Shown: one piece after another, positions 18,021 through 50,279 of the stretch
Numbering within the stretch: the stretch's first letter is position 1
How the letters are laid out: each line of letters opens with the position of its first letter
Notes under the pieces: generated by a model
What the model was told of the DNA's origin: nothing
The model's input: the letters and a program-made list of their open reading frames with translations, nothing else
The model's database searches: none
Assembly (NCBI GenBank): GCA_023252215.1
Contig: JAHEXG010000002.1
Location: forward strand, 16,315 to 80,314
Length of the DNA stretch: 64,000 bases
Direction of reading: 5' to 3'
From: Candidatus Altiarchaeales archaeon
GTDB lineage: Archaea > Altiarchaeota > Altiarchaeia > IMC4 > QMZM01
Program-made: the position numbers and the translations under genes

Positions 18021-18051
18021 TTTTCACTCCATAGTCCGTATATAACTTACA

Positions 18052-24180: not shown

Positions 24181-24238
24181 CTCGGGAGCATGTATTATTT
24201 TTGTAGTTCTATTTAATAACTAATCTTTATAAATAAGG

Positions 24239-25305: not shown

Positions 25306-25306
25306 C

Positions 25307-25561: not shown

Positions 25562-25572
25562 GCCTAAAAAAG

Positions 25573-25722: not shown

Positions 25723-25732
25723 TTTTTGTTTT

Positions 25733-25972: not shown

Positions 25973-26035
25973 CGTCTATGTCAAAAATTATTGAGATATT
26001 ATTATGGATTGACTAAATAAAAACCCGCTTGCAAA

Positions 26036-26788: not shown

Positions 26789-26800
26789 GGATTCCTTAGA

Positions 26801-28099: not shown

Positions 28100-28166
28100 T
28101 TTGAATCCAGAGAATATGGGTTTAGGGGGCTAAAAATCCATGGGCATATGTGTTATTTAAGGTTTT

Positions 28167-28202
28167 ATTCACTTAAATTCACTTAATGCCTTTTAAAAAG
28201 GC
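28167..28202. promoter_or_regulatory. Tandem 10-bp direct repeat (attcacttaa x2) followed by perfect palindrome gccttttaaaaaggc, between the ASCH gene and aspS
   Basis: Read directly from sequence. Sits 3' of the island genes and 5' of aspS on the minus strand. Confidence 0.3.
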
Positions 28203-28249
28203 AGTTGAATAGGTAAGAAATAATAAGGTAGATAAATAATTCGCCTTTG

Positions 28250-28684
28250 CTACTCGACTAGGAGTGCCTGAAATGCTCCCGCCGTTCCCCCCATTTTCTT
28301 GTACAGCTCCGATCCGTCCAAGTACGCATAATTCTGCGGCGGCCTGAACCCAGAGCATGTTTCGTATGGGTCAATCGGGGTCTCGAATTGCTCGTATTCG
28401 TCTATCTCCAGGGCATGGATCGTTGTCTTGTCCGCGCAGTAAGCAAAGAAGTTGCCGTAATCTATTCCCCCGTACGACTTGCATTTCTCCCAGATATCCT
28501 TAGGCGAGCCGATCAATATCTGTTTTATAGTGAACCAGCCTACTATATGCTGTGTCGGGTTGGATTCGTATACATAGACTTTTTCGATTTTTTCCTTGGG
28601 CGTCTGTTTCCGGAATTCGTATCGCTTTTCACCAGAGAAAATCTTTTCGCTGTATTTTGGTTTAATCGACAACAATATTTTCAT
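28250..28684 (-). CDS. ASCH domain protein
   Basis: N-terminus MKILLSIKPKYSEKIFSGEKRYEFRK is a typical ASCH/PUA-like beta-barrel start. Overlaps the upstream gene by 23 nt. Confidence 0.7.
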   Translation of the reverse strand: MKILLSIKPKYSEKIFSGEKRYEFRKQTPKEKIEKVYVYESNPTQHIVGWFTIKQILIGSPKDIWEKCKSYGGIDYGNFFAYCADKTTIHALEIDEYEQFETPIDPYETCSGFRPPQNYAYLDGSELYKKMGGTAGAFQALLVE

Positions 28685-30176
28685 TGCTTTCTGTATTCTT
28701 GATTATTTTTTCAAAAGACTCATCGGATACCTTTTCGAAGCCCCTCGGAGCGCTCACGGTGTCCGGGATCACTCCAAGTTTTATTAGTCCCTCTAAGTTT
28801 ACTCTTTTTGGAAACGAGTATATATACAAAAAATTCACGATAAAGGACCTGTTTCTCGGATTGTAGTTCCAATGCTCTATGAGCTCTTCGTCGGAAAAGA
28901 CGCTCCTCTTTCGGCACAGGCTTATGAACTGCTCCTGGTCTTTTATCGCGGTATGGATGTTCTCGACAACTCCTATTGTGGTTATCACAGAAGTGTAGTA
29001 TGCCGATCGTCCGGGTTCAGCCGTACGGTAAAATATGATTACATCTCCTGCTTTGAGGTCCCTGTTAACGGATCTTGAAATGTATACCTTTGAGATGGCG
29101 TTTCTGTATGGCTCATTTTCGACAAAATCGAGGGGCGACTCCGTCTTGAGGATTGAATCGGGGAAAAGCTCGGTGTGGTACTGCGGGTATATCGGCACCA
29201 TGTATTTATTTGCCTTCCTGGAAATGAATGGATATGTGTTTTTCGAGTGTTCAAGGGACGCAGTCAAAGAGAGGTCGCGTACGTAGACATCTTCTTTTCC
29301 AGATAAAGATTCCTTTATTCCGTAATAATTGAATCCATAATCCTTTAACAACTCGATCAGTCGGGTTTGGTCCGGGAAGATCGTCACGTATATCTCGTCC
29401 ACCGAGGATTTAAGCGCGTTATCGTAGATTATTTTTATGAATCTTTCCCCGAGTTTGAACCCGCTTAAATCCACTTTGAAAGTCCCTACCTTCAGGCGCT
29501 TCTTTTTCTTGAACGGTGGAGTTATGCCTTCGTAAGGCTCGGATTCGTTCTCGACTTTAAGGTATAAGAATGCCACAATCTTTTTTCCAGCAGTACAGAC
29601 GTATGAGAGCTCCTGTGCCTTTTTGTCGAACCATTTGTCAAAGCCGACGTACGCCTTTCTGAGGCTTTCGAAAAATTCGTCCTTCAAGTCGATGTTACTG
29701 AAGTATCCTTTCTTGACGGACAATACCTTGTAGTCCACCAGACCAGGATTCTCTGAGGATACTTTCTCGATGAAGCTCTCGATGGTGAAAATTTTATCCT
29801 CTATCCCCATCTTCCGGGATTTTTCATGAAGCTTACGGTCTTCGGTTATTAGATAATCGATGCGTCCAGAGTAGACCTCATTTAATAGCAGAGTATCGTT
29901 TTTATCGTTTTCAGTAGCATCCCCTTTTGATAGGATTGATATTTCAGCACCTATCGACGCTTCGGTCGGCAAGAGGTAGTAGCTCTTTAATTTTATGGAA
30001 AATGCTTTGCATGCTTCTTCGTTCTTATTTTTGTTTATCTCCGCGATGGTTACTCTGTGCATGCATTTCTCGTATTTTAATTTGTCCAGCCATCGAAAGA
30101 GTTCTCCTATATCTTTATTACTAGGATTAATGGTTTCTCGATGAATCACTATGTTGGTGTCGAGCAGGACTTTCAT
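28662..30176 (-). CDS. Three-domain protein: N-terminal PIN nuclease, central GNAT-like acetyltransferase fold, C-terminal PUA/ASCH-like domain
   Basis: PIN acidic residues in LLDTNIV, NDTLLL, ITEDRKL. GNAT-like middle domain (KIVAFLYLKV, GFKLGERFIKI, YGF). C-terminal GDVIIFYRTAEP beta-barrel-like. GAGGT SD. AT-rich locus. Confidence 0.6.
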   Translation of the reverse strand: MKVLLDTNIVIHRETINPSNKDIGELFRWLDKLKYEKCMHRVTIAEINKNKNEEACKAFSIKLKSYYLLPTEASIGAEISILSKGDATENDKNDTLLLNEVYSGRIDYLITEDRKLHEKSRKMGIEDKIFTIESFIEKVSSENPGLVDYKVLSVKKGYFSNIDLKDEFFESLRKAYVGFDKWFDKKAQELSYVCTAGKKIVAFLYLKVENESEPYEGITPPFKKKKRLKVGTFKVDLSGFKLGERFIKIIYDNALKSSVDEIYVTIFPDQTRLIELLKDYGFNYYGIKESLSGKEDVYVRDLSLTASLEHSKNTYPFISRKANKYMVPIYPQYHTELFPDSILKTESPLDFVENEPYRNAISKVYISRSVNRDLKAGDVIIFYRTAEPGRSAYYTSVITTIGVVENIHTAIKDQEQFISLCRKRSVFSDEELIEHWNYNPRNRSFIVNFLYIYSFPKRVNLEGLIKLGVIPDTVSAPRGFEKVSDESFEKIIKNTESNENIVVD

Positions 30177-30360
30177 TTAATTTACCTCGTAATATTTTGA
30201 ATATAGTTTAGGATAAATCAGTATCGAAAATATAAATAACGAGACAGAGCATAGGAAAAGTATTACTAAGTCCTCAAGAATCACCTGGCAGACATCAGAT
30301 TATCAGTACCAAAATAATTACAGCATCGCTTAACGCCTTGCAGTTCCCCCAGACCTTAAA

Positions 30361-32373
30361 TCACCGTATCTTCGACCCCACCGGAGCCTCTTTATCGGGA
30401 ACGAGCAGTATCGCCTTCCCGTCCACGTCCGCAGCAAGCAGCATGCCCTCCGACAACACTCCCCGCAGTTCCGCGGGTTTTAGGTTCGCAACGACTACGA
30501 CGTGTTTTCCCAATAGTTCCTCTTTTTTGTAGTAATTGCGTATTCCCGCAACTATCTGCCTTAGAGCCGGTTCTCCGAGGTCGACTTTCAAAACATACAG
30601 CTTGTCAGCCTTGGGGTGCTCGACAACCTCTTTGATAACACCTATCCGTAGTTCGGTCTTCTTGAATTCTTCGTATTCCAGGCAATTTGCGTCCATTTTT
30701 TGTTCCTCCTTCTTTTCAGTGCTTAGATACTTCTTTCCAAAGGCTGCGATCTCGTCATCTTCTATCTTTTTGAATAAGGTAAAAACTTTCCCTATCCTGT
30801 GGCCTTCCCTGACTGCGAGTTCTCCCGCGTCTTCCCAGCGGCACTCTGACACTTTTCCTTCCAGGCCGAGCATCTTCCATATCTTCTCGGACGTGAACGG
30901 AAGGAACGGGTAAGACAGTATCGCAAGAGTCCTGCACAGGTTCGCACACAGGTACAAAGTGGTCGCGTTCTCGTTCTTCCAGGGCTCCTTTTTCTGGAAA
31001 TACTCGTTCCCGCAGTGAGCGATTGCCATCAATTCCTTGAGCGCGTCCAAAAACTTAAAGTGCGCCAGGTGTTTGCCCACCTTCTCAGGCGACTCCCTTA
31101 TGAGCTCCTGCATCTTCTCATCGAGCGCGTCAAACGCCGTCACCTTTGGAACGACAGAGCCGCTGCGCTCCAGGAAAGACATGCTGCGGTTCACAAAATT
31201 GCCGTATGTGCCGATCAGTTCGCTGTTGGTCTTTCCCTGGAAGTCTTTGAGCGAGAAATCCGCGTCCTTCTTTTCAGGGTTTATGCTAAGCAGATAATAG
31301 CGGATAACGTCGGTATCGTACGCTGTAAGCGCGTCATGCAGCCAGAGGACCCAGTTCCTGCTGGTGGACATCTTCTTCCCCTCCAAGGTCAGGTACTCGT
31401 TGCTGGAAACCTGCCAGGGTAACGTGTACTGGCCGTGGGCCATGAGCATCGCGGGCCAGATTATGGCATGGAACGGGATATTGTCTTTGCCAAGGAAGTG
31501 GACTATCTTTGTGTCCGGCATCTGCCAGTACTTCTTCCATTCACCGGGTTTCCCGATTTTTTGGGCCCACTCCTTTGTCGCAGAGATATAACCAATAGGC
31601 GCATCGAACCAGACGTATAAGACCTTCCCCTTCGCGCCTTCGATCGGCACTGGAACGCCCCAGGAGAGGTCTCTTGTAATAGCCCGGTCCTCGAGGCCCT
31701 CCTTTATCCAGCCCAGAGAGAAGTTCCTCGCGTTGTCGGGCCAATGCCGGTTCTCTTCTATCCAGCCGTGCAATTTCGCGGAGAACTCGGAGAGCTTGAA
31801 GAACCAGTGCTCGGTCGCCTTCATGACAGGCGGATTGCGACAGGTAACGCAGTAGGAATCCTTTAATTCATGAGGCTCCAATTGCTTTCCGCAGGCCTCG
31901 CACTGATCGCCCCGCTCATCCTTGCTCCCGCAGTGCGGACAGGTGCCTCGCACGTAGCGGTCAGGCAGAAAACGCTTACAGCTATTGCAATAGGGGCGCT
32001 CTACGACTTTCTTGTATATGTAGCCCTTTTCGAGTATGTCTTTGAAGAACTGCTGAGAGAGCTCATAATGAATGGGTCTCGTGGTCCGGGAAAAATTGTC
32101 AAAGCTTATGCCAAGATCCACAAAGGATTTTTTGATAGCCTCATGATACCGATCGACTATGACCTGGGGAGAAACACCCTCCTTTTCCGCGGCGACCGCT
32201 ATGGGCGTCCCATGCTCGTCCGTGCCCCCGACGAATACGACGTCGTTTCCCTTCATGCGATTAAAACGAACGTACACGTCCGCAGGAATGTAGGCGCCGA
32301 TAGCGTGCCCGACGTGAAGCGGCCCGTTCGCGTAGGGGAGGGCTGCGGTTACGAGGATCTTTTCCTTGACCAT
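30361..32373 (-). CDS. metG: Methionyl-tRNA synthetase
   Basis: HIGH motif (PYANGPLHVGHA), KMSKS motif (KMSTSRN), zinc knuckles, C-terminal tRNA-binding domain. Confidence 0.9.
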   Translation of the reverse strand: MVKEKILVTAALPYANGPLHVGHAIGAYIPADVYVRFNRMKGNDVVFVGGTDEHGTPIAVAAEKEGVSPQVIVDRYHEAIKKSFVDLGISFDNFSRTTRPIHYELSQQFFKDILEKGYIYKKVVERPYCNSCKRFLPDRYVRGTCPHCGSKDERGDQCEACGKQLEPHELKDSYCVTCRNPPVMKATEHWFFKLSEFSAKLHGWIEENRHWPDNARNFSLGWIKEGLEDRAITRDLSWGVPVPIEGAKGKVLYVWFDAPIGYISATKEWAQKIGKPGEWKKYWQMPDTKIVHFLGKDNIPFHAIIWPAMLMAHGQYTLPWQVSSNEYLTLEGKKMSTSRNWVLWLHDALTAYDTDVIRYYLLSINPEKKDADFSLKDFQGKTNSELIGTYGNFVNRSMSFLERSGSVVPKVTAFDALDEKMQELIRESPEKVGKHLAHFKFLDALKELMAIAHCGNEYFQKKEPWKNENATTLYLCANLCRTLAILSYPFLPFTSEKIWKMLGLEGKVSECRWEDAGELAVREGHRIGKVFTLFKKIEDDEIAAFGKKYLSTEKKEEQKMDANCLEYEEFKKTELRIGVIKEVVEHPKADKLYVLKVDLGEPALRQIVAGIRNYYKKEELLGKHVVVVANLKPAELRGVLSEGMLLAADVDGKAILLVPDKEAPVGSKIR

Positions 32374-32441
32374 AAGGTATTAATTGGATTTAGAAAGAGA
32401 AAAAAGAGGCATATACCAAAAAAATATGTATAGAGGAATAT

Positions 32442-32666
32442 TTATCCTGTCTCCACCGTTTTTATCTCCGGCACTTCTTTTTTGATCATCGCTTCCACGT
32501 AGTTCTTCAGGGTCATCTGGGCCATTGGGCAGCCGGCGCATGCGCCCTGGAGCCGTACTTTGGCTACGTCTCCTTTTACGTCCAATAACTGTATGTCTCC
32601 TCCGTCCTGCTGCAGGGCCGGGCGGACTTTTTCAATAACCTTTGCGACTTTCTCTTTTGTGTCCAT
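32442..32666 (-). CDS. NifU-like C-terminal domain protein (Fe-S cluster scaffold/carrier-like)
   Basis: 74 aa with CAGCPMAQMTL, typical of the NifU C-terminal domain. Confidence 0.7.
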   Translation of the reverse strand: MDTKEKVAKVIEKVRPALQQDGGDIQLLDVKGDVAKVRLQGACAGCPMAQMTLKNYVEAMIKKEVPEIKTVETG

Positions 32667-32676
32667 TTTTGAGGGC

Positions 32677-33528
32677 TCACTGTTTTAATTCGACGTTCTT
32701 GTTGTCGCGGGCTACCACGTTGTCATTGTATAGTACTTCCGCAGAGATAACGTAAGTTCCTTCCGCGACTCCTGCGCATTTGTTGCAGGGAGGGCTTGGA
32801 TAATTGAAGGATACGTCGTTCGACCCTGCGTTTAGGACGACTGCCTGCGTCTGGTTAAGCCGGTAGCGGCCTGCGTATATGCCGTAGACGTTCACGTTTA
32901 CGTCCAGTCTTTTCTGGCTGCTTATCTTCACGGTTATTTCCATCTGTTCCCCGGAGTGATACAGCGGCTTATTCAATGTGATCGCAGCCTTCACTTCCCC
33001 GTAGCGGGGGGTCTTTATCTTTGCAACCCCTGAATCGTTCTCCTGCGTGCAGGCTCCATCAAAGCATACATAGCCAGAGGGGCAGTCGATAGTCTTGTTC
33101 TTGAGGAGGAGGTTGCAGTCGATGACTTCACAGGTGTACTCCAGGACCGCGGTTCCATTTACGCATGCCTCGTTCTTCTCGCCCCAGTTGTAGTGCGCGG
33201 GATCCGATACATCCGTCAGGTAGAGGTTCAATCTGCCGGATACTGTGCCTTTTTTGTAGGGGTCTAGTCCGTCGGAGTCAAGGCACTGTTGCATTGTGGG
33301 GATAGTGCATTGACGGGAGGTAGTTGTCGTTTGCGTGACCAGGACCTGCTGAGTAGTTGTCGTGATCGAGGCAGGAACGCTTGTAGAAACCCCTATTGTC
33401 GAGGTTTGAATGGTCGATTCAGCGACCGTTACAGTAGTTACCGGGGACTGCTCCTGCTGCTGTACGCAACCAGGCAATAAAGTCGCGGCTAAAATAAGAA
33501 CTAAAAAAAATGTTTTTCCCGCATCCAT
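32677..33528 (-). CDS. Secreted/lipoprotein-like protein with Thr-rich linker and Cys-rich domain
   Basis: Signal peptide with LLPGC, TTTTQQVLVTQTTTT linker, multiple Cys pairs. Confidence 0.6.
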   Translation of the reverse strand: MDAGKTFFLVLILAATLLPGCVQQQEQSPVTTVTVAESTIQTSTIGVSTSVPASITTTTQQVLVTQTTTTSRQCTIPTMQQCLDSDGLDPYKKGTVSGRLNLYLTDVSDPAHYNWGEKNEACVNGTAVLEYTCEVIDCNLLLKNKTIDCPSGYVCFDGACTQENDSGVAKIKTPRYGEVKAAITLNKPLYHSGEQMEITVKISSQKRLDVNVNVYGIYAGRYRLNQTQAVVLNAGSNDVSFNYPSPPCNKCAGVAEGTYVISAEVLYNDNVVARDNKNVELKQ

Positions 33529-33563
33529 CGATAAAGAATCGGATTACGGGATTAAATAAAGCC

Positions 33564-36500
33564 TTAGACATTCATGGTCACAGTTCTGGTCTCCGTTGTT
33601 CCAGATCCTCCCGCAGTCTTGTTCGCTGAGAAATAATAGCTGGATTTGCCGTTCTCAAGCCCTGTCAGATTCCCGTAGAACCGCCATTCTGTGGAACTGT
33701 ATTTCTGCAGCTCCGACTGGTAGAACATGGATATTTCCTTCTGGGAGAGAGCCCTGTTGTATATCCTCACCTCATCTATCAAGCCTTTAAAGTTCCTTCC
33801 TGATATGCCTGAGCCTATTTTAACAGTGCTGCAGGGAGTAATGCTTGAGAACGCGGTTGTTGCATAGCCCGCTACGGATCCGTCCTGATAGAGCGTGAGG
33901 TTCCCGGACTTCGCAGTTATAGCTATGTGCCTCCATACTCCTGTCGGCGTCTGCGCGATTATAGGCAGGTTTATCCCTCCGCTGCTTGTGAATACTGCCA
34001 TGTTACCAATCGCATTAAGCTGCATGTGGACCATACAGCTGTCAGGGGTTCCGACTATAGACTGGAATGTTCCGGTGGTCGCATTCACGTTCACCCAGGC
34101 GATCACCGTGAGCTCGGCTGCGCCGCCCAGCGTACCGTTGACATCGACCTGATCATCCACACCATCGAAGAACATAGCTCCGTTATATTTACCGGATCTT
34201 GACCAGACGGCACCGGATATGTTGCCAACGTGTCCCTTCGAGGAGACGTCCCCAACCTTTGTCGCGCTGTCGCCTGCGGCCGATATGTTGTTGAAGTTAT
34301 AGGCCAATGCAAGAGAGCCATCAAGCACCCTATACGTAGTCCCGTTCCAGTACAGGGAGAGTCCGGATATTGCTGCAGTATTTGACACGTTTACTTGAGC
34401 AAAGCTGCGGTTTATCGTCGCACCATTAGTCTCAGTCGGTGTCTTGAAAGATAACAAGGCAAGAGTAGTTGTTGTCGTGGTCGTCGTGGTAACAAGTGTT
34501 CCGACGTTATTCTGTTCGGCGCCGAATACCGTCTGAGGTTCTGGGAAAACATATTCGGCTACGTAGAGGTCATCCCACCGATTATTGTCAACCGATGCCT
34601 CTGAGCCGCCGGTCTTACCGAGAGACACAAATCCGCTCTTGTAGGGCCATGCAAAGGTATTCCTCTTGGTTCCGTTGAAATACAGGCTCATGTTAGTCCC
34701 GTCGAAACGGAAGCCTTCCATGAACCAGCGGTCCTGCACCGGAACATACTGTCCAAAGCTTGCGGACCCATTGAATCCGGAATAATAACCAATATTGTTA
34801 TTCGGATCACCATGGTGGAAGAACGCAGCATCCAGCGGCCAGACCTGATTTGGAGCAACTCTCCAAAGACCAGTCTGCGCAGTCTCCCCGCCAGTATTAT
34901 CCTCCGCATTCCAGGACTTCACTCCCACAAGATAAGGCTTAGAAATGTTCAAGCCTATTGGAGCCTTTGAAAGATTCAGATAGACATAAGCGTAGCCGTT
35001 CATGCAAGTCTGATAGCCGCTCTCCCCACACTCAGGAGTCTCCAAATAGCCGTTGGCCTCATTGATAGACGCCTCGCTCTGAAGCTTTGTCCAAGCGGAA
35101 TTGACTACACCATCATTAAAGTCATCGAAGAAAAGGAATGTCTTGCTGCCATTGCTCTGAGATACGGCAGAAGCATTGCCGTAGAACAACCAAAGCTGAG
35201 TCCCGTTTTTAGTATTCAAAGAGTCGGCTTTAATCCAAACCTCTGCCCACGAACCGTTATTTACATTCTCTACCCAGTAAGGCAGTGCAGTCGATCCGTT
35301 GCGATTCACGAACCTTAGATCAGAGAAGTCCGGCTTCATGTCACTGTCGTATGTGACTTTAAAGAAAAGACCGAGGTTGGTTGCGTTTTTTGCCACGCTG
35401 ATGTTCACAGGAACGCGCTTGGCAAAGCCGGGGAGGACGGAAGCTGACTGAGTCGTGGTGGTTGTTGTAGTTGTAGTGGTCGTGGTAGTTCTTGTAGTGG
35501 AAGTAGTTGTTGTGGTAGTAGTTGTAGTGGTTGTCATTGTAGTGGTCGTGGTAGTCATTGTAGTGGTCGTGGTAGTCATTGTAGTGGTCGTGGTAGTCAT
35601 TGTAGTGGTCGTGGTAGTCATTGTAGTGGTCGTGGTAGTCGTCGTAGTGGTCGTACCAACGCGAACCGTCCGTACTCCATTGTCTGTCTGCGCCTTGTTC
35701 CCGGCAGAATCATTCGCCCACGCGTAATAAGTATACGTCCCAACGCCCAGATTCGACAGGTTACAATAGAACCGATACTCAGTCGAATTATACTTCTGCA
35801 CCTCAGACTGATAATGAAACCACACCTCCTGCGCAGAAAGCTTGCGACGGTATATGCGCAGTTCGTCTATGCTGCCATTCATGGTCCCTCCGTCAACCCG
35901 CGAACCGACTGTAAGAGCTGCGGCGCTCTTTATGCCGTTACTCCCCAGGTTGTCCGCGTCCACTTCGGTCGCGACGCTCACGCCATTGAAATACATCTGC
36001 GGGCTGCCATCCCCACCGTAGGCAATCGCTACATGATACCAAGTATTCAGCGGAATCGTGCTAACAGACCTCTTAGACATCCTCGAGGTGAACCAGTTAT
36101 TGATCAGCTCCAGATAAATCTTGCCGTCGGCGAAGATCTCCACGCCGTAACCCATATATGGATCGGAATTCATCTTTGCCACTATCGGAGAATGCGCCGT
36201 CGTCCTCCTGTAGACCCAGGCCTCGAAAGAGAACGAATCAGTCCGGTCAAAACTCGTGCTATCCGACGTAGGAACAGTCACAACGTCATTGTATCCGTCA
36301 AAGGATACTGCTTTGCCGTACTTTCCTCCGACGAACGCAGGACACTTGCCGCCCGCCAGGTCGCACGATCCATTGTTCTTGTACTTTGAAGCGTCCACGA
36401 AACGAATCGAGGATTCGCCGAGGGCAGTGTTGTTGTTGAAGCCCTGCGCAAGCACCAGATCCTTGTCGTATACACTGTAATTGACACCATTCCAGTTGAA

Positions 36501-39500
36501 CCACATTGAGTCCAAAACATTGCCTGAACCAGGAGACACGCTCACGTTAAAGACGGCTCCGTTCGGACTGACCTGACTGTTATTGACAGGGGTCGGAGAG
36601 CGGAAAACGACACCGATCAATGTGGTCGCCAGAGTCGTCGAGGTAGTCGTCGTGGTAGACGTTGTAGTGGTCGTACCAACGCGAACCGTCCGTACTCCAT
36701 TGTCTGTCTGCGCCTTGTTCCCGGCAGAATCATTCGCCCACGCGTAATAAGTATACGTCCCAACGCCCAGATTCGACAGGTTACAATAGAACCGATACTC
36801 AGTCGAATTATACTTCTGCACCTCAGACTGATAATGAAACCACACCTCCTGCGCAGAAAGCTTGCGTCTATAGACCCGGACCTCGTCGATCGAACCGTTT
36901 ATAGTCCCCCCGTCGACCCTCGAACCTATGGTGAAAGGAGCGGAACTCTTGATGCTGCTAGACCCCAGCGTATCGAAAACTGTGTCCACACCCACGCTTA
37001 CGCCGTTGAAATACATCTGCGGGCTGCCATCGCCGCCATACGTAACAGCGACGTGATACCACGTATTCACCGGGATTATAGCAGCAGACCTCTTGATCAA
37101 GCGGGTTCTGAACCAATTATAGATCAGCTCAAAAGACAGCCGATCAGAATTGATCTCAAAACCGTAGCCCGTATAAGGATCAGAGGACATCTTTGCAAGG
37201 ATAGGAACAGACAAAGACGACCTGCGATAGACCCATGCCTCGAAAGAGAACGAATCGGTCCGCTCAAAATTCAGGCTCTCAGAATTCGGGACAGTCACAA
37301 CATCGTTTGAGCCGTCAAAAGACAGGGCGGAGCCGAACCTTCCGGAAACGTATGATGGGCATTTCCCCCCTGCAAGGTCGCATGAACCATTATTCCCCTG
37401 CCCGGAAACATCGACAAATAGAGTTGACGACTCGCCGATGCGAGTATTTCCATTAAAGGACTGACCAAGAACAAGATCCTTGTCATAAATGCTGTAGTTG
37501 ACCCCGTTCCAGTTGAACCTCAGGGAGTCAAGGGTCCTGCCCGAACCCGTGGACAGGCTCACATTAAGGACGGCTCCGTTCGGACCCACAAGGCTGTTGT
37601 TGGAAGGAGTGGGGGAACGAAAAGAGACACTGATCAAGGTGGCTGGCAGGGTCGTCGTGGTTGTAGTTGTTGTGCATGAAGTTCGACAAATACCATCACT
37701 GCACATAATCCCGTTTGTTCCACAGGCTTGCCAAGCACCCCATTTACCGATGTCGCAGGAGCAATAACGCACTTGCATCCCAGGACAACCATTAGCCGCG
37801 ATGCAGTTTTTTGTGTCCATTCCTCTCGCATCCGGCCAGCAGTAGGAACATTCTGCGCCGATCACCGTCACAATACCATCAGATTCTGTAATCGCCGCTT
37901 CATTTCCATATTCAAAATTTATTTCAGAATCCGTCAAGTCCAAAATAACGTTCCCTGGAGAAATCGCCATAAAAGTTACAACCGACAGAGCGGTTCCTGC
38001 ACTAGCCTTAGGCTCAAGGCATGCAAAATCGATCCCAACGACACCTGGCTTATTTGCAGAGACGTTGTAGCGCGAGCTGCAAGATGAGAGATAATCGCCT
38101 GACGAAACGCCAGTAACATTCAGTACTGATGAATTGTAATATAATCTGAAACTATATCCATAGATACCATCAAGAGGCGTCGATGCGATCTGCACCGTAA
38201 AGATATCATTTACTTTGACTTGACTAGCAGATGGAACTGCGCTTATAGTCGCTGAAGGGCCCTCAAAAGACTTGAGACCCAGTTTAGTGGTCTTAGCTTG
38301 ATTCGTGGCACTTGAAACGCTTTTCCCGGTTCCGTAGCTTGTAGAAAGAGTGAGCAGATCACCGTAATTCACGTATCCATTCTCATCAAAGTCGGAACGG
38401 ATATCATAGTTCTGCTGGCCTTTATTTGAACCGTATGCCGTAGCAAGAATCAATAGATCGGAGTAATCCACCTTATTATCTCGATTAGCATCTCCTGCGA
38501 GGCCGCCGATTGGATCGCAAACATCGCCTATGTAATTGTGATTATAGTCCATCTGGCCAGGATTACGGTCAAAGGGACAATTATCGTTTTTATCGAATAC
38601 GCCATCGTTGTCGTCGTCGCAGTCATAATAATCGGCATTTCCATCGCCATCGCTATCCCTTTTGGCTGAAAGGCGGAATTCTCCAGAACCAGAATCCATA
38701 TCAACTTCTATGTAATACGTCCCCGAATTGCTGATAACGCAACTCTCAGTTTCTGAACCAATAGTCCTACTTGTACAGAAAGGCTCGCTACCACAGGCAC
38801 TCGAAACATAGAGATCATAATCTGCACTAGAAGACATGCTCAGGTAAACAACGCCGGGAGAACTAAAACTCACCTTATAAAAACCACGCCATAGGTAATT
38901 TAAATCAGGGGTGTAAGTAGCTTTAACGACGCTATCCGGAGAAATCACTGGCGCGTTTGCGCAATAATAGTCGCCGGCATTTGAGACTGCAGCAGACTCG
39001 GGACAGCCGCTATTGCATTCTGGACCGTATGTTGAAAGGCAAGTATCTCTGCAATCTTTGACTCCATCTCCATCAGAGTCGTACAGACAACTGGGAGTAC
39101 TTAGTATATCCACGACGACGACTGAATATATTTTCGTCGGAATGTCTACGGAGATATAGTCGCCATCGGATTTTGGGATTCCTACAGAATCGCATCGCCG
39201 CCAGAGATTGGTTTTGGTTGTCAAATCAGTCTCTATGTTTTTGCCATCGTAAAGGTCTCCGCTAAGCAGTTTTATCTCTATGTGGTTCGTTTGTGTGTTT
39301 GCGGGGAGTTTGAGTAAAACAGGAGCATAATAAAAACGTGTCAGAGCTTTGCCGCCGTTTTTCTCCTGTACGGCATGAATGACATACCTCTTACCAGTAG
39401 GGCGTAATGGGCTGCTATAGGTTAACACGCCAGTTATGGCCAGATCATAATTAATCCCCGGGTCGGGTATGATTCCATCAGTAGAGGGATAAATCGTGGG

Positions 39501-41516
39501 ATAATTTTTGTATGTATCTGAATTCCGTTCTAAATCAGTTACGGCCATGTTGCTCCTGCCTACAGAATCCAAATTTAGATTTGGATCAGCGAACACATCC
39601 TTGTATCCATTATACATCGTCAGGTAATTTGAAAGATTCGAGACGATAAAATCGGGATTGTTATCTGACGATATTTTTGGATAATTGAATTCATTTATAC
39701 CCCGGTTACTCCAAGTCCATCCAACTATAACGCGAGGATCTCTTTGATCTCCGGTTAGAGGGGGATTATTAAACGGATCTTTGTAATGCCCTGGGCGCAT
39801 AGGTTTAAAGGAGGTATCATACGTTTGCTCGCTCCACAAGATATGACAGCCCTTTTCAGTTTCCCCTATGTCGGAGGTAAACTGGTCTGTGCTCGAACCA
39901 TCCTCAGAAGCAGCTAACGAAGGCCATGGAACAAAATAGTCGGAGGAGAAAAGAGCTTTATCAGCTCCTACACCTTCTTTTAACTGCCCTCTCATATGGC
40001 GTATCATGTTAGCATAGGCGTCTAGAGTAAAAGTGTCATTTACATTTAGTCCAAGATTCGAATTACCTTGACTGTTAAGTTTTATCTTTAAATCAGATGC
40101 ATAATCGCTGTTATACACGCCATAAGGAGTATCACTAGGGTATTCAAGGTGAGATATTCTAGTTGCACAGGTTTCCGCAGAACCAAATTTTATTGGGAGA
40201 TTATATGTTTCACCGCCGAGCGTATTGAGTAAATCGCCGCCCATAACAAGTCTCCCAGTATCGTCTACAAAAAATATGTCAAAATCGTAATTCTTCACAA
40301 GCCAACGAAACTGTTTCACCATATGATAATGATAACTGGGGTCATCAGCCCAATTCTCACCTTCAGACAGATCATCGTCAATTTGTTCCCGAGAAAATCC
40401 AGAACCGTCCTCAGCAGTAACGCCCGTCTTGGACACACCATAAGGAGACGCAGTAACGGCATAAGATATGGGGGTCCCCTCGAGTAAAGTCAATCTTTTA
40501 ACAACACCTGAACTATTTTTTTCAACCCAGCCATCAGCCATTAGGTCTGTTTTAGGATTGGGAGAAAGTTCGCATCCAGGAACATGAACAGGGTCATACA
40601 AACCGATAGGATCCATATAGACAGTTACTTTCATCCCATACCTATGAGCAATATCAGATATCTCTCGTATTTTTTTTCTTGCATCAGTAATCGAATAAAT
40701 GCCTAAAGAATTAAAGTTTCCTCGACGGACAGAAGCAGTCATAGGTGGCGTAGAATAATAGCTATTTCCATCCTCGCTTCCTGGAAACCAGCAGCTTGTT
40801 AATTTATTATTAAAAGGACATTCACAGCTACCTTTTTGGAGTGCGGGTTTAATTGTGCAAGCTTCATCCTCGCCGTAGGAATACCACAAATACGCCAAAT
40901 CTAATACGTTTAGCCCATAGCCGGATGCATACTTGATTACTCGTTCCCATTCGCTCGTCCACATTGAATCGATCTTTCCCTGATCTCCCGCGTAAGGTTT
41001 AAGCTTTTCGAAAATTGTTTCCCAGTCGCTTACGGCAACGTAATAGGTAAGCGTCCTGTAGTCCTTCGAAACCCCGAATTCGTCCACGTAGAACCTAAAT
41101 TCTGAGGAGGTACTATTGAATTTAGCGATAACCTTGAAATTTTGACCTACGAAACTGAACCCGCTGGGGGACTTCCAGGCAGCATAGTTACCGGAATTCC
41201 AAACCATGTTAAAATATTTTGTTTCGCCGGGAGCGACAGAAATGGATTTAGAAAGCTGGCCTACCTGGCTATTACTTCCATTATAAATTAAGAGCTGTAG
41301 AGTACCAGAAGCCGTACTTGAACCACCGTTCTGGATAACGGTTGTAAGGTTAACATCACCCCCAGATTTGAAAACCCGCTCAGGATTCCCTAAAGGGTCG
41401 GTCGTCTCCACCGAAACAACCAACGCAGCTAACGCATTATCAGCTAGAGCTAATATCATCAATCCAAGTATTAAAATTTTGCATAAAGATTTAGCATTGA
41501 CCTTTTTTGTTTTCAT
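33564..41516 (-). CDS. Giant secreted surface protein (2650 aa) with signal peptide, PPC-like domain, thrombospondin-type-3-like Ca-binding repeats, dockerin-like repeats, cohesin-like module, three LamG/concanavalin-like domains, DUF2341-like domain and poly-Thr linkers
   Basis: Signal peptide MKTKKVNAKSLCKILILGLMILALA. Ca-binding repeats DSDGDGNADYYDCDDDNDGVFDKNDNCPFD. Dockerin-like DANRDNKVDYSDLLILATAYG and DENGYVNYGDLLTLSTSYG. Cohesin-like VKVNDIFTVQIASTPLDGIYGYSFRLYYNSSVLNV...VVTFMA. LamG-type units duplicated. DUF2341-like LRFVNRNGSTALPYWVE. Confidence 0.85.
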   Translation of the reverse strand: MKTKKVNAKSLCKILILGLMILALADNALAALVVSVETTDPLGNPERVFKSGGDVNLTTVIQNGGSSTASGTLQLLIYNGSNSQVGQLSKSISVAPGETKYFNMVWNSGNYAAWKSPSGFSFVGQNFKVIAKFNSTSSEFRFYVDEFGVSKDYRTLTYYVAVSDWETIFEKLKPYAGDQGKIDSMWTSEWERVIKYASGYGLNVLDLAYLWYSYGEDEACTIKPALQKGSCECPFNNKLTSCWFPGSEDGNSYYSTPPMTASVRRGNFNSLGIYSITDARKKIREISDIAHRYGMKVTVYMDPIGLYDPVHVPGCELSPNPKTDLMADGWVEKNSSGVVKRLTLLEGTPISYAVTASPYGVSKTGVTAEDGSGFSREQIDDDLSEGENWADDPSYHYHMVKQFRWLVKNYDFDIFFVDDTGRLVMGGDLLNTLGGETYNLPIKFGSAETCATRISHLEYPSDTPYGVYNSDYASDLKIKLNSQGNSNLGLNVNDTFTLDAYANMIRHMRGQLKEGVGADKALFSSDYFVPWPSLAASEDGSSTDQFTSDIGETEKGCHILWSEQTYDTSFKPMRPGHYKDPFNNPPLTGDQRDPRVIVGWTWSNRGINEFNYPKISSDNNPDFIVSNLSNYLTMYNGYKDVFADPNLNLDSVGRSNMAVTDLERNSDTYKNYPTIYPSTDGIIPDPGINYDLAITGVLTYSSPLRPTGKRYVIHAVQEKNGGKALTRFYYAPVLLKLPANTQTNHIEIKLLSGDLYDGKNIETDLTTKTNLWRRCDSVGIPKSDGDYISVDIPTKIYSVVVVDILSTPSCLYDSDGDGVKDCRDTCLSTYGPECNSGCPESAAVSNAGDYYCANAPVISPDSVVKATYTPDLNYLWRGFYKVSFSSPGVVYLSMSSSADYDLYVSSACGSEPFCTSRTIGSETESCVISNSGTYYIEVDMDSGSGEFRLSAKRDSDGDGNADYYDCDDDNDGVFDKNDNCPFDRNPGQMDYNHNYIGDVCDPIGGLAGDANRDNKVDYSDLLILATAYGSNKGQQNYDIRSDFDENGYVNYGDLLTLSTSYGTGKSVSSATNQAKTTKLGLKSFEGPSATISAVPSASQVKVNDIFTVQIASTPLDGIYGYSFRLYYNSSVLNVTGVSSGDYLSSCSSRYNVSANKPGVVGIDFACLEPKASAGTALSVVTFMAISPGNVILDLTDSEINFEYGNEAAITESDGIVTVIGAECSYCWPDARGMDTKNCIAANGCPGMQVRYCSCDIGKWGAWQACGTNGIMCSDGICRTSCTTTTTTTTLPATLISVSFRSPTPSNNSLVGPNGAVLNVSLSTGSGRTLDSLRFNWNGVNYSIYDKDLVLGQSFNGNTRIGESSTLFVDVSGQGNNGSCDLAGGKCPSYVSGRFGSALSFDGSNDVVTVPNSESLNFERTDSFSFEAWVYRRSSLSVPILAKMSSDPYTGYGFEINSDRLSFELIYNWFRTRLIKRSAAIIPVNTWYHVAVTYGGDGSPQMYFNGVSVGVDTVFDTLGSSSIKSSAPFTIGSRVDGGTINGSIDEVRVYRRKLSAQEVWFHYQSEVQKYNSTEYRFYCNLSNLGVGTYTYYAWANDSAGNKAQTDNGVRTVRVGTTTTTSTTTTTSTTLATTLIGVVFRSPTPVNNSQVSPNGAVFNVSVSPGSGNVLDSMWFNWNGVNYSVYDKDLVLAQGFNNNTALGESSIRFVDASKYKNNGSCDLAGGKCPAFVGGKYGKAVSFDGYNDVVTVPTSDSTSFDRTDSFSFEAWVYRRTTAHSPIVAKMNSDPYMGYGVEIFADGKIYLELINNWFTSRMSKRSVSTIPLNTWYHVAIAYGGDGSPQMYFNGVSVATEVDADNLGSNGIKSAAALTVGSRVDGGTMNGSIDELRIYRRKLSAQEVWFHYQSEVQKYNSTEYRFYCNLSNLGVGTYTYYAWANDSAGNKAQTDNGVRTVRVGTTTTTTTTTTTMTTTTTTMTTTTTTMTTTTTTMTTTTTTMTTTTTTTTTTTSTTRTTTTTTTTTTTTTQSASVLPGFAKRVPVNISVAKNATNLGLFFKVTYDSDMKPDFSDLRFVNRNGSTALPYWVENVNNGSWAEVWIKADSLNTKNGTQLWLFYGNASAVSQSNGSKTFLFFDDFNDGVVNSAWTKLQSEASINEANGYLETPECGESGYQTCMNGYAYVYLNLSKAPIGLNISKPYLVGVKSWNAEDNTGGETAQTGLWRVAPNQVWPLDAAFFHHGDPNNNIGYYSGFNGSASFGQYVPVQDRWFMEGFRFDGTNMSLYFNGTKRNTFAWPYKSGFVSLGKTGGSEASVDNNRWDDLYVAEYVFPEPQTVFGAEQNNVGTLVTTTTTTTTTLALLSFKTPTETNGATINRSFAQVNVSNTAAISGLSLYWNGTTYRVLDGSLALAYNFNNISAAGDSATKVGDVSSKGHVGNISGAVWSRSGKYNGAMFFDGVDDQVDVNGTLGGAAELTVIAWVNVNATTGTFQSIVGTPDSCMVHMQLNAIGNMAVFTSSGGINLPIIAQTPTGVWRHIAITAKSGNLTLYQDGSVAGYATTAFSSITPCSTVKIGSGISGRNFKGLIDEVRIYNRALSQKEISMFYQSELQKYSSTEWRFYGNLTGLENGKSSYYFSANKTAGGSGTTETRTVTMNV
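35531..35640 (-). repeat. 21-bp tandem repeat, about 5 copies, inside the giant gene, encoding (TTTTTTM)n linker
   Basis: Unit cattgtagtggtcgtggtagt repeated head-to-tail. In-frame on the reverse strand. Confidence 0.85.
35645..36876 (-). repeat. 1020-bp tandem duplication inside the giant gene; 212-bp blocks (35645-35856 and 36665-36876) are 100% identical, the remainder about 75% identical
   Basis: Direct comparison of the two segments in the sequence. Encodes duplicated LamG-containing units ending ...SAQEVWFHYQSEVQKYNSTEYRFYCNLSNLGVGTYTYYAWANDSAGNKAQTDNGVRTVRVGTTTT. Confidence 0.9.
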
Positions 41517-41737
41517 AAAACACCTCTGAGGAGAGTATTCAGATTTAGACAGAATATAATAGAAAAGACCTTTTCAACAGCTATCAATCCCTTGTCCTTC
41601 CACATAGCAAGCAGTTCCTCCCGGGACGGCACCCGGACTTTTTCATATCTTGCGCAGTATGAGTTGTTTAGAAAGTCAAGGATATAACACTTCTCAGCCG
41701 GAAAAATATTTTCTTGGTTTTTCATTTGGGGAAACAC
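41513..41737 (-). CDS. Small hypothetical protein (74 aa) translationally coupled to the giant gene
   Basis: Stop overlaps the giant gene start (ATGA). AT-rich promoter-like region upstream. Confidence 0.35.
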   Translation of the reverse strand: MFPQMKNQENIFPAEKCYILDFLNNSYCARYEKVRVPSREELLAMWKDKGLIAVEKVFSIIFCLNLNTLLRGVL

Positions 41738-41916
41738 CTCGAATAATTTTCTCCGTTTATACTTGTACAGGCAGAGTATAAAAAGCCCCGTCCAATGTTC
41801 TCTTTAATGATAAATCATGATAAATATTGTATATATGTCATGATAGATTATGATGATTTTGTACTACATTATATAGTTTTATTGATAGCAAAAAAGAATG
41901 ATCGCATAACAGGCCA

Positions 41917-43312
41917 GGTTGTCCCATAATTCTTTGTTTGAATTTGTGTTTGTGTATTTATACTTTCTTTCGTAAATCATTATGCAGAGGCGCATTTGTT
42001 ATGGCTTATATTGATTCTTTTAAGGGTCAGAATTGGCTTCTTCCGCCTAGTATTCGTGATATGATTCCGGGGGCCATGTCTGTTTTTTTGTTGAGGATTT
42101 TGTTGATTCTTTGGATTATTCAGGATTTGATTCTGTTTATGAGGACGCAGAGCATCCTGCTTATCATCCTCGTGTTTTGTTGAAGGTTTTGGTTTAGGGT
42201 ATGATGTGCGGTACTCGTTCTTCCCGGAAGATTGCGCGTGCTGCGCGTGAGAATTTTGTTTTCATGTATTTGGCTGAGCGATTATGTCCTGATATAAGAT
42301 GATTGAGGAGGACAATACCTTGGATGATTTGAAAGATGAATTGTTTGACGGCAGGGAAGAAGGCTTAACCGGCGTTGATAGGCGTGATTTAAAGCGTATT
42401 GTGCGGGAGTACAATGAGAGTGAAAACAAGAAGCGGATTAAGAAAAAAATAGGTAAGGCCAAGACGGAGCTTGAAGAGCATGGTTTGAAGAAGGTTTCTC
42501 TTTCGGATCCTGAGCGTCGCATGATGCAGAATAAGCATGGAGTGAGTGAGTTGTGCTATAATATTCAATTGGGTGTTTCCAGTAATCAGATTGTTTTGTC
42601 TTCTGATGTCTGCCAGGATAAACATGATGCGCATCAGTTTATTCCTCAGATGAACAAGCTGCGGGAAAACGTTGAGCTGCAAAAGAACACAAAAATCGGC
42701 GTGGAATGCGCTTACAGCGACAGGGAAAACATCCATTTTGCGGAGGATAAGGGCTTGGATTTGTATGATCCTTCGAGGGCGCAGACTCAGGAATTAGATT
42801 GCAAGGAACAGAATCTCAATCACGACCATTACGAATATGATGAAAAGCACAATGAGATCATTGTAGATGGAACAAGGTATCGATATCGTGGTCCTTATAC
42901 GAGAAATAAGAGCGGGAGGACGCTTGTCACCTTCTACAATCCGCAGATAAAGAAGAAAAAAGACCGTCCGTCCTATTTTAGGGAGCGTCTTAGAATGAGG
43001 AATAAAATGTCCACACCTGAAGATAGACGGATTTATAATCAGCGTAAGACAAGCGTGGAGCCAGTGTAAGGAAACCTGAAAACCAATCGGGGTTAGGGAA
43101 TTTTTACTGAGAAGAAGGGAAAAAGCAAAGATCGAACTAAATTTAGCGTGTATCGCGCACAATTTGCAGAAAATACATCGAATGATGGGCGAAAAAAGCG
43201 GGGTATTGACCCGAAAAGAGGGACGTTTTTTAATTCAACCCCCCAAAAAAAAAGCTTCAGTACCTCAAAAACCAAAAACGAATTATGGGACAGCCTCAGA
43301 CATTTAAACGCC
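41917..43312 (+). mobile_element. IS1182-family insertion sequence remnant with 16-bp imperfect terminal inverted repeats
   Basis: Left IR GGTTGTCCCATAATTC (41917-41932) and right IR (reverse complement) GGCTGTCCCATAATTC (43280-43295). Internal transposase fragments. Lower GC than flanks. Confidence 0.6.
42001..43312 (+). pseudogene. IS1182-family DDE transposase, inactivated by at least 5 frameshifts
   Basis: N-terminus MAYIDSFKGQNWLLPPSIRDMIP then a frame change. ...VCFFVEDFVDSLDYSGFDSVYEDAEHPAYHPRVLLKVLV and ...RSSRKIARAARENFVFMYLAERLCPDIR lie in other frames. Middle ORF 42299..43069 holds SDPERRMMQNKHG...YNIQLGV...SSDVCQDKHDAHQ. C-terminal FGNLKTNRG / REFLLRRREKAKIELNLACIAHNL is again shifted. 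Confidence 0.65.
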
Positions 43313-43380
43313 CTTTTTATGCATTGAAGCAAATATAATAGTAGTATTACGAAATTGTAAATAGTATTACTGGTGAAAAT

Positions 43381-43674
43381 ATGTGGTTGATAACATCTTT
43401 TGTCGCGGCAATACTCGTGACTGCGTTATGGGCGTATGCTCCGAAGAAATACAAGCTGAGTTTTTTGGCTTTGATGCTCTGGGGGCTTGCAGTGATGATA
43501 CTGGTGGACCATGTGATGGGATACGAAGGCTCGGGCTCGTTCCTTGAAATGGAAACGGAAGGACTTATCGAGAACGGGACGGTTCTCGGTATAGCGATGC
43601 TGATACCCGTATTTATTATATGGGAGATCGCACTAGTAATATCGAAAACAAAGGGGGAGATAACGACGAGGTAA
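43381..43674 (+). CDS. Small membrane protein (paralog A)
   Basis: 97 aa, 3 TM segments. Shares LMLWGLAVMILVDHVMGYEG / LNAMLWGGTAGLALEHVAHGE with the next gene. Confidence 0.5.
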   Translation: MWLITSFVAAILVTALWAYAPKKYKLSFLALMLWGLAVMILVDHVMGYEGSGSFLEMETEGLIENGTVLGIAMLIPVFIIWEIALVISKTKGEITTR

Positions 43675-43680
43675 AAAAAA

Positions 43681-44016
43681 ATGGCATGTTTTAGCGCACC
43701 AACGGCCGTTGCTATTGTTACAACGGCCTGCAGGAAAAAGATACCGGAAAAGTACCACATAAACTGGCTTAACGCGATGCTCTGGGGAGGAACCGCAGGG
43801 CTGGCATTGGAACACGTCGCCCACGGGGAGATAGTGCCCTATTTCCCCTTTCTGACGGCCATGAAGAGCGCACAGGATACCGCAGTCATGTTCCAGGAGA
43901 TATTGACCGTAGGAGTCGGTATGCTTGTCGTCTGTTTGATCGTCTGGGCATTAATGGTGTTCGTTGCCTGGAAATTAGAGGCAAAGGCCAAAAACGTAGT
44001 TACGCAGGCGGTATAA
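43681..44016 (+). CDS. Small membrane protein (paralog B)
   Basis: 111 aa. Paralogous to the preceding gene, 7-nt spacer. Confidence 0.5.
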   Translation: MACFSAPTAVAIVTTACRKKIPEKYHINWLNAMLWGGTAGLALEHVAHGEIVPYFPFLTAMKSAQDTAVMFQEILTVGVGMLVVCLIVWALMVFVAWKLEAKAKNVVTQAV

Positions 44017-44099
44017 GTAAAAAAGTCCGGACGCCGGAGAATCTGTGCGTCAAGCTTCTTCTTTTAACTTTTTATTCGGAAAACGCCTAAGATAAATCC

Positions 44100-45347
44100 A
44101 TGGCTTATCCAAGAGCAAGAACACCGATAGCTTTATCGCTTATACTGTGCGTTCTGCTATTTTTCTGCGGATGCGCAGGCAACAAAGGGACTGCCGTCAC
44201 AACCACCACCCAGTTCATTACCGCGACAACGCTGCCGGTTCAGAATACCCCCGCAGCCTCGTTCGGAGAATACGCCACATTCTACACCCGCATGGTTTAC
44301 GCAGGGAACCTGGGAGGAAAGCCCGCATATATCGTATCAAATGGCAATGTATCGAATGGCAATAAAAAACTCATATTATACGACGGAAAAGAGATAGGAG
44401 CGTCCTATGATCAGGCTCTTATGCCCGCGCTCATCGCCGGAAAATTGTTCTATGCGGGCGTCAAGAATAATAAATACAGCGCAGTATATGACGGACAGGA
44501 AATTGGAAAAGATTTCTTCTCCATCTGGTCTCCCGGCGAATACCTGGGAAAGCCCATCTACGTCGCCGAGAAGATAGGAAAAAGCGTCCTTATTTTTGAC
44601 GGGAACGAAATAAGCAACGCAAGCTACGACTACGTCTGGTCCTATGCAATAATAAACGGCAAGATCGCTTATCTTGCATCAAAGGCAGGGGAGACGTATA
44701 TCGCCAAAAAAATCAACCCCCAGACTTCGGAGTCCAGGAGAGACATCCCGCCAGAGGGGGTGAAATCGGTCATAGTCTATGACGGAAAGGAGTATGGCAG
44801 GGAATATGACACCGTAGGCTTCCCGATGGGTATCAAAGGATCGCTTGCCTTTATCGCTCTCAAAGGCGCTAAAAAATTCACGGTTCTGGGCGGCATGGAG
44901 GGCACGAAATACGACGACATACACGAACCCCTATTATACGATGGGAAGACCGCGTACATAGCCGAGAAAGACGGGAAAAGCTTCCTTGTATACGACGGCG
45001 CGGAGTATAAAGCATACGACCGCATTGACCCAACCTCGTTGAAGAACATCGATGGAAAAATGTCTTACCGGGCCGCTGATCCAACCACCAAAAAAGGAAA
45101 ATACTTCATAGTATATGACGGCGCAGAGATTGGGAAAGACTACGACAACGTCCTCTCATTTGCCGCGTTGTCAGGAAAGCAGGCTTATGTTGCGGATAAT
45201 AAGACAACACGCTCAGTTGTCTACGCCGGCGGGAGCAGCGGGAAAGCATACAGCGCGATTGACCCGGACTCGCTTGCATTCTACGACGGGAAGCTCATGT
45301 TCACGGCCCAGAAAAACGGCGTATGGTACGTCGTATCGGAGGAATAA
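44100..45347 (+). CDS. Lipoprotein with about 9 tandem 36-40-aa repeats (YDGxEIGxxYD periodicity)
   Basis: Signal/lipobox LLFFCGCAG. Repeated K..Y[IV]AEK.GKS.L[IV]YDG.E.G..YD units. Confidence 0.7.
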   Translation: MAYPRARTPIALSLILCVLLFFCGCAGNKGTAVTTTTQFITATTLPVQNTPAASFGEYATFYTRMVYAGNLGGKPAYIVSNGNVSNGNKKLILYDGKEIGASYDQALMPALIAGKLFYAGVKNNKYSAVYDGQEIGKDFFSIWSPGEYLGKPIYVAEKIGKSVLIFDGNEISNASYDYVWSYAIINGKIAYLASKAGETYIAKKINPQTSESRRDIPPEGVKSVIVYDGKEYGREYDTVGFPMGIKGSLAFIALKGAKKFTVLGGMEGTKYDDIHEPLLYDGKTAYIAEKDGKSFLVYDGAEYKAYDRIDPTSLKNIDGKMSYRAADPTTKKGKYFIVYDGAEIGKDYDNVLSFAALSGKQAYVADNKTTRSVVYAGGSSGKAYSAIDPDSLAFYDGKLMFTAQKNGVWYVVSEE

Positions 45348-45348
45348 T

Positions 45349-45783: not shown

Positions 45784-45834
45784 AAAAAAAGAATAAAGGG
45801 AGGTAACCTCCCGGACTATGCCTGCATTCGTTGC

Positions 45835-46665: not shown

Positions 46666-46741
46666 AATTGTAATTGTGTTTTGAGAGTATAAAAAATTCC
46701 CAAAAACCTTTATTTCCTTTTGGTCTCCCATAAAATAACCT

Positions 46742-47497: not shown

Positions 47498-47514
47498 GCC
47501 AGAACTAGCCTCGG

Positions 47515-50278: not shown

Positions 50279-50279
50279 C

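Follow-up and report, generated by a model that had tools for sequence, protein, structure and literature searches.

A 203-bp block of perfect identity in two diverged LamG units of a giant archaeal gene, probably left by recent intragenic recombination

The giant gene and its repeated units

The stretch of DNA analyzed here, hereafter the window, is 64 kb long (64,000 nucleotides) and spans positions 16,315 to 80,314 of contig JAHEXG010000002.1, in the assembly GCA_023252215.1 of a Candidatus Altiarchaeales archaeon. Its minus strand carries a giant gene, the product of which is most likely a secreted or cell-surface protein, as judged from a hydrophobic leader and a content of cohesin, dockerin and LamG domains that fit an extracellular location. 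Two consecutive LamG-containing units of this protein, U1 and U2, form a tandem duplication, and their C-terminal ends share a block of perfect nucleotide identity. The coordinates of the gene, of its parts and of a neighbouring transposase remnant are collected in Table 1.

Table 1. Features of the giant gene and of its upstream neighbour (window coordinates; aa, amino acids; ORF, open reading frame)
Feature	Position	Strand	Basis or remarks
Giant gene (putative surface protein), 7953-bp ORF, 2650 aa	33564..41516	minus	ORF list, translation
LamG unit U1, aa 1290-1614	36675..37649	minus	Delineation, alignment; tblastn with U2 as query, 74.8% aa identity
Thr/Ser linker 1, U1-U2 junction (TTTTTSTTTTTSTT)	36633..36674	minus	Translation
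LamG unit U2, aa 1629-1954	35655..36632	minus	Delineation, alignment, Pfam Laminin_G_3, AF2 model
Perfect block copy 1, C-terminal 67 codons of U1 and first Thr codons of linker 1	36664..36866	minus	203/203 identical to copy 2
Perfect block copy 2, C-terminal end of U2	35644..35846	minus	203/203 identical to copy 1; structure and Pfam mapping
Thr-linker minisatellite, 21-bp unit x 8.6, encodes TTTTTTM	35471..35654	minus	Tandem Repeats Finder (TRF); 4 perfect copies at 35539-35622
DUF2341-containing module, about aa 2025-2342	34491..35444	minus	Pfam DUF2341 at aa 2063-2143; BLASTP 75% identity to a module of the ortholog P0001
Diverged third LamG unit U3, aa 2352-2650	33567..34463	minus	31% aa identity to U2 (tblastn, alignment)
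Truncated IS1182-family transposase (putative), 256-aa ORF upstream of the giant gene	42299..43069	plus	NCBIfam NF033551, E 1.3e-27, profile 219-448 of 488

Translation and Pfam matches give the order of parts in the giant protein: an N-terminal hydrophobic leader, a conserved N-terminal region of ~1200 aa, a TSP3/dockerin/cohesin portion, a Cys-rich module, and a series of Thr-linked modules. The C-terminal half is made, in order, of a Thr linker, U1, a short Thr/Ser linker, U2, a long Thr linker, the DUF2341 module, another Thr linker and U3. Pfam detects Laminin_G_3 over three stretches (E 5e-64), DUF2341 and Cohesin, together with weak matches to Dockerin and TSP_3. On the whole protein, Laminin_G_3 (PF13385) reaches 215 bits, for a curated cut-off of 27.6, and U2 alone matches it with an E value of 4e-23, over model residues 116-274. 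The AlphaFold (AF2) model of U2 (predicted local distance difference test, pLDDT, 80; predicted template modelling score, pTM, 0.82) shows a LamG-type jelly roll, and its Foldseek comparison to the PDB retrieves LamG-like lectin domains with a probability of 1.0. In addition, U2 has a weak match to Big_13 (E 0.036), which covers the second half of that Ig-like profile. Block copy 2 maps onto residues 267-333 of the model, a segment that comprises a helix, five beta strands and, of the LamG match, only the final 8 residues. This suggests that the LamG domain may be inserted in an Ig-like frame, of which the block would be the C-terminal half.

The identical block in the sequence and in independent assemblies

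When the giant gene was compared to itself by blastn, a single off-diagonal match was found, with 75.6% identity over 1041 columns and an offset of about 1020. A codon alignment of U1 with U2 gave 747/990 identical nucleotides (75.5%) and 249/330 identical residues (75.5%), in agreement with the original prediction, which had described a tandem duplication of ~340-aa LamG units with about 75% DNA identity. The two units have the same orientation, with an offset of 1020/1017, and both are full length and in frame, the offset being a multiple of three. Outside the block, their nucleotide identity is 69.1%, and U3 lies outside the homogenised tract.

The longest perfect run at offset 1020 measures 203 bp (35644-35846 = 36664-36866). 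The prediction was therefore right as to a perfect block at an offset of exactly 1020, and as to its position at the 3' (C-terminal) end of each unit, the gene being on the minus strand, but the length of 212 bp that it gave has to be revised: the interval proposed (35645-35856 versus 36665-36876) contains 206/212 matches, starts one base late and overruns the edge by 10 nt. Beyond this edge, 4/10 nucleotides match in the first 10 nt, and identity is 66% over the next 100 nt. On the linker side, near-identity extends over 21 bp more, so that 35623-35846 matches at 221/224 positions. The minisatellite encoding the Thr linker after U2 abuts the block, and the first 11 nt of the block are common to both. 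Setting aside this neighbouring 21-bp array, the window, which has no Ns, contains no other exact repeat of at least 40 bp.

The probability of such a run arising by chance was estimated by permutation. After shuffling the 243 differences over the 990 sites, the longest identical run had a mean of 21 and a maximum of 65 among 100,000 permutations, versus 203 observed. Similarly, 65 consecutive identical codons are found among identical amino acids, versus a permutation maximum of 32. The second longest identical run, 26 bp at 35986-36011, was considered as a possible second tract and rejected, as it is within permutation expectation.

Silent sites were analyzed by the Nei and Gojobori method (NG86), which gives rates of nonsynonymous (dN) and synonymous (dS) divergence. 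The 261 codons that precede the block give a dN of 0.23 and a dS of 1.58, the latter reaching 3.95 in the final 60 of them: silent sites outside the block are saturated. Within the block, dS is 0, and 64/64 informative codons are identical. The switch is abrupt, since 14/15 of the codons just before the block (codons 247-261) differ, and 11 of these 14 differences are synonymous changes at conserved residues (e.g. TCG/AGC for Ser, AGA/CGT for Arg). This sharp upstream edge, with constraint on both sides and silent divergence missing only in the block, rules out protein-level selection as the cause of identity. From its sequence pattern, the edge would be a recombination breakpoint, not a gradient of conservation, and the dS contrast accords with the recent intragenic homogenisation initially proposed.

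We then looked at contigs of the same species in independent assemblies. Two contigs of the MEGAHIT k=141 assembly ERZ27279942 approach the block from its two unique sides. Contig k141_7511239 (L025) corresponds to window 36726-53069 with 99.994% identity (one mismatch). Its end, at 36726, falls 141 nt inside copy 1 of the block, which is why the partial gene product that it encodes is exactly 1597 aa long. Contig k141_2587998 (L022) corresponds to window 22677-35591 with 99.985% identity (two mismatches), and breaks off at a position equivalent to 35784, again 141 nt inside the block, here copy 2. Both are identical to the window within the block. Ends placed exactly k nucleotides into the block are the de Bruijn signature of an exact repeat that exceeds k in length and has two paths leading in and two leading out. 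As any difference between the two tails would let k = 141 contigs run further, these ends support the presence of a genuine 203-bp exact repeat in the population. Apart from the window itself, no read or contig spanning both copies was found; the k141 contig ends imply two contexts in the reads.

A third contig, from Logan (L021, SRR14366796), is 100% identical to window 26924-35562 and ends within the 21-bp array. Each short-read contig recovered for the species thus breaks either in the block or in the adjacent minisatellite, which bears out the liability to assembly errors anticipated for this region. The linker array is itself variable: in L022 it is shorter than in the window by 63 bp, i.e. 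3 units, a sign of local instability.

Relatives of the units and of the locus

Micrarchaeota, Woesearchaeota and unbinned metagenome contigs carry a unit of ~320 aa made of an Ig-like frame and a LamG domain, with 1-10 copies in tandem and 27-41% identity to the units described here. The whole-protein search was swamped by poly-Thr words and yielded 5 matches; a protein search with the unit only also yielded 5 distant matches. Between adjacent units of these relatives, the tail is the best-conserved part (60-92% aa identity), with a dS mostly between 0.5 and 1.6. Because the tails of the family are conserved anyway, the argument for conversion rests on silent sites. We also considered whether the tail might be a conversion hotspot in the relatives, and rejected this, since such tail dS values denote purifying selection and the low-dS patches fall elsewhere in the unit.

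Patches of this kind were found in three Micrarchaeota-type contigs from independent assemblies. In L002, 332 bp are 94.9% identical between 10001-10332 and 17939-18270, 7.9 kb apart, with a dS of 0.17. In L008 (2168-2602 versus 3800-4237), the N-terminal frame has a dS of 0.18-0.35, versus 0.89 in the core, and in L006 (574-727 versus 1774-1927) a patch of 51 codons has a dS of 0.29. The nucleotide identity of these patches is 89-95%, and the unit cores share 25-45% protein identity; in these LamG-unit genes, unit ends are conserved and LamG cores strongly divergent. Given the low-dS patches in all three contigs, partial homogenisation between units recurs in the family.

The locus itself was compared in two relatives. 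The more distant one encodes at the same place an ortholog, P0001, 64% identical over residues 1-1218 (BLASTP). Past ~1220 aa, P0001 has two DUF2341 and two dockerin-like modules in place of U1, U2 and U3. It comes from the same ENA sample as a methionyl-tRNA synthetase (MetRS) 83% identical to that of the window. The closer relative, L020 (JGI Ga0378408_0010251), has a MetRS with 91% aa identity, flanks with 73-86% nucleotide identity, and synteny on both sides. It lacks window 33559-43311, i.e. 9.75 kb comprising the giant gene and 1.8 kb upstream, and has 170 bp instead (L020 2042-2211, blastn). Since the distant relative keeps the gene at this locus and the close one is without it, the missing segment looks like a dispensable island or a lineage-specific deletion. 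Inside this segment lies the transposase ORF of Table 1, which aligns with the C-terminal half of the IS1182-family model, has no Pfam match and, from these sequence comparisons, is classed as the putative remnant of a truncated insertion sequence (IS). The Logan assembly and one MEGAHIT contig break inside this ORF (42891 and 42483). A second segment non-homologous to L020 is present at window 28149-30352 (L020 5500-7292). In the window, it contains a 504-aa ORF with a weak PIN_3 match and an ASCH-like ORF, and in L020, BofA-like and acylphosphatase-like genes.

As to the N-terminal part of the giant protein, its first 872 aa have no sequence match in the PDB and no match in Pfam. The region from aa ~30 to 810 (window about 39100-41430) is 45-46% identical to parts of two other proteins, P0002 and P0003, and appears from these alignments to be an uncharacterised conserved extracellular domain. 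P0001 shares the whole length of the ~1200-aa N-terminal region, and P0002 and P0003 only part of it (about 29% of the query). The architectures flanking the shared part differ greatly in the latter two: one has PD40-like repeats, the other a beta-helix NosD-like region. From the cohesin domain to the first Thr linker sits a 63-residue module with 12 Cys (37674-37862, aa 1219-1281), which has no family match and is not found at the equivalent position of P0001. A sequence look-up returned no record for the exact 2650-aa protein, and none for neighbouring ORFs of 322 and 74 aa.

Around this locus, the window carries genes of chromosomal character, for MetRS, a class II aminoacyl-tRNA synthetase, a topoisomerase, a geranylgeranyl reductase, Hyp maturation proteins and a Mvh/Hdr-like hydrogenase. 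The nearest named relatives of the MetRS belong to Candidatus Altiarchaeales/Altiarchaeota, with 60-70% identity, which makes an altiarchaeal genome most likely. Two tRNA genes are found, at 8534-8671 (minus strand) and 9023-9095 (plus strand). The length of the former, 138 nt, implies the presence of an intron, in keeping with an archaeal genome.

Origin of the block and comparison with known repeat proteins

These observations are likely to be explained by an old tandem duplication, followed by a recent and short tract of non-reciprocal recombination, of 203 to about 224 bp, between misaligned units. The two 340-residue modules, each a LamG jelly roll framed by Ig-like strands, would derive from the old duplication and would then have diverged to saturation at silent sites. 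We infer that gene conversion between misaligned repeats, during repair or replication, may have transferred the terminal ~203-224 bp of one unit to the other, and so erased all differences within the tract. The upstream breakpoint of this tract, which is sharp, would lie within the last LamG strand, and its other end at the point where the low-complexity Thr linker starts. The turnover of modules at the locus, where P0001 has other C-terminal modules and L020 is without the gene, supports this reading.

The resulting 203-bp perfect direct repeat would now be open to unequal recombination or slippage, by which a whole unit could be lost or gained in frame. The two copies of the repeat are spaced by exactly 340 codons, and a crossover between them would thus delete or add one unit without a frameshift; such gain or loss is what the sequence would permit, and no event of the kind was observed. 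It is accordingly plausible, on the basis of this arrangement, that the 1020-bp unit may be a hotspot of copy-number variation, as first suggested.

Several points weigh against this scenario. The tail is conserved by purifying selection in most relatives, and high tail similarity alone is no proof of conversion. Close copies of the units were sought in genome, metagenome and protein collections and none was found, the best match having 41% aa identity. Finally, the arrangement and number of units rest on the window's own assembly. In the de Bruijn graph, linker 1, the head of U2 and the block form a loop that could be traversed more than once. As short-read assemblers cannot tell the number of traversals, the count of two units is a lower limit, and one-unit and two-unit variants may coexist. 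The collections searched yielded no strain in which a different number of units was resolved; the variation seen was that of the adjacent linker array and, between species, the presence or absence of modules or of the gene.

Other origins of the block can be envisaged. A recent perfect duplication of 1020 bp may have been followed by replacement of the ~800-bp head of one copy, overwritten from a diverged paralog or from imported DNA. The end pattern would be the same as that of a single conversion tract, C-terminal modules are exchanged between species, as the different modules of P0001 at the same locus testify, and the conserved unit ends and very divergent LamG cores of L008 and L006 would fit as well. 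Head replacement needs, however, two events and an unseen donor, and the only other copy of the unit in the window is U3 (31% identity), with no close homolog in the collections searched. Moreover, 200 bp is a typical tract size for a single conversion event. We therefore consider head replacement unlikely. We also hold it quite unlikely that the block is an artefact of assembly or polishing, in which similar tails were homogenised by consensus building or by polishing with multi-mapped reads, or two one-unit strains were chained through their tail. The repeat is longer than common read and k-mer lengths, the short-read contigs recovered for the species all break there or in the adjacent minisatellite, and in relatives no part of the unit is better conserved than the tail (80-92% aa), so that the real tails could plausibly be about 90% similar. 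This is contradicted by the ends of L025 and L022, which lie exactly 141 nt from the two edges of the block, in sequence identical to the window, when any difference would have extended the contigs; in addition, the two units are complete, with their reading frame preserved. As for a strain chimera, it needs a path from tail to linker 1 to U2 head, which is present in the reads anyway.

Selection at the nucleotide level, on a functional DNA or RNA element held in the block (structured RNA, internal promoter or antisense gene), is very improbable. Antisense ORFs of 191 and 158 aa do start inside both copies on the plus strand, 1020 bp apart (35814-36389 and 36834-37310), and sigma-70-like and terminator-like consensus matches are found in both copies. 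These ORFs are probably spurious, owing to the duplication and to the stop-poor antisense strand of a Thr/Val-rich coding sequence; the promoter and terminator consensus matches are of bacterial type, not above those of shuffled sequences, and doubled only because the sequence is. Moreover, the block is unremarkable in its RNA folding (z = -1.0), Rfam has no match in it, and 203/203 identity with an abrupt edge beside saturated silent sites is not expected from such selection. A pair of template and variable repeats of a diversity-generating retroelement (DGR) comes to mind, as a segment of ~200 bp is repeated at the C-terminal end of a ligand-binding module of a surface protein, and DGRs are common in DPANN archaea, a lineage related to that of the host. 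This possibility is effectively refuted: adenine-specific differences are expected and the copies do not differ at any of the 203 bp, a scan of the 31 largest ORFs detected no reverse transcriptase, and the fold is of the LamG/Ig-like type instead of that of a C-type lectin.

Recombination between misaligned units, the explanation that we retain, has precedents. Repeat-rich surface-protein genes are subject to intragenic conversion and concerted evolution, for example those of streptococcal alpha C/Rib and staphylococcal SasG/Aap. The gene described here resembles such microbial tandem-repeat systems by its paralogous in-frame repeats, its tract of zero silent divergence within diverged sequence and its sharp breakpoints, and also by a perfect direct repeat able to mediate in-frame gain or loss. 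It differs from them in that about 20% of the unit is homogenised, in that there are two units, and in its host, an uncultivated archaeon. Recombination-based antigenic variation has been reviewed (Vink et al. 2012, as cited in PMC8201768). The closest named concept is that of Periscope proteins (Whelan et al. 2021, PMC8201768), long surface proteins of globular repeats, for which DNA identity between repeats has been proposed to allow recombination and length change. Periscope repeats break short-read assemblies, so that long reads are needed, and they are highly identical over whole units, present in many copies, with documented length variation between strains (PMC8201768). The present gene would likewise encode a long surface protein of globular repeats, and it also breaks short-read assemblies, but it falls outside the Periscope definition: whole-unit identity is 75.5%, 203 of 1020 bp are identical, and only the 21-bp Thr-linker array was seen to vary. 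Giant LamG (Laminin_G_3, PF13385) proteins of DPANN and other archaea share the same ~320-aa unit, with co-occurring Thr-rich linkers and DUF2341 modules; in contrast to them, the present gene joins these units to the conserved ~1200-aa N-terminal region, in an Altiarchaeota-like genome. A literature search on altiarchaeal surface proteins and repeats found nothing specific.

A broader reading would be that the conserved unit tails, each made of the last LamG strand and the C-terminal half of a split Ig-like frame, and the poly-Thr minisatellites serve as homology handles, with which Altiarchaeota and DPANN-type archaea would shuffle, delete and duplicate LamG binding cassettes within giant adhesins, the block being a fresh footprint of this process and the gene a dispensable island flanked by an IS. 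We regard this as rather unlikely; if true, it would amount to a recombination-based system of surface variation in archaea, analogous to antigenic and length variation in bacteria.

As it stands, the finding brings a known mechanism to light in one more organism, as is usual in surface-protein genes rich in repeats, and it reveals no new mechanism. In practice, however many LamG units or 21-bp linker units an assembly of this archaeon shows, their number should be read as a lower bound. Given that the linker varies in length, that the ortholog has swapped modules and that a close relative is without the gene, the surface protein appears to be a fast-evolving and dispensable part of the cell envelope. 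The finding would be a further case, from an archaeon, of the well-known rule by which genes for repeat-rich surface proteins evolve through intragenic recombination.

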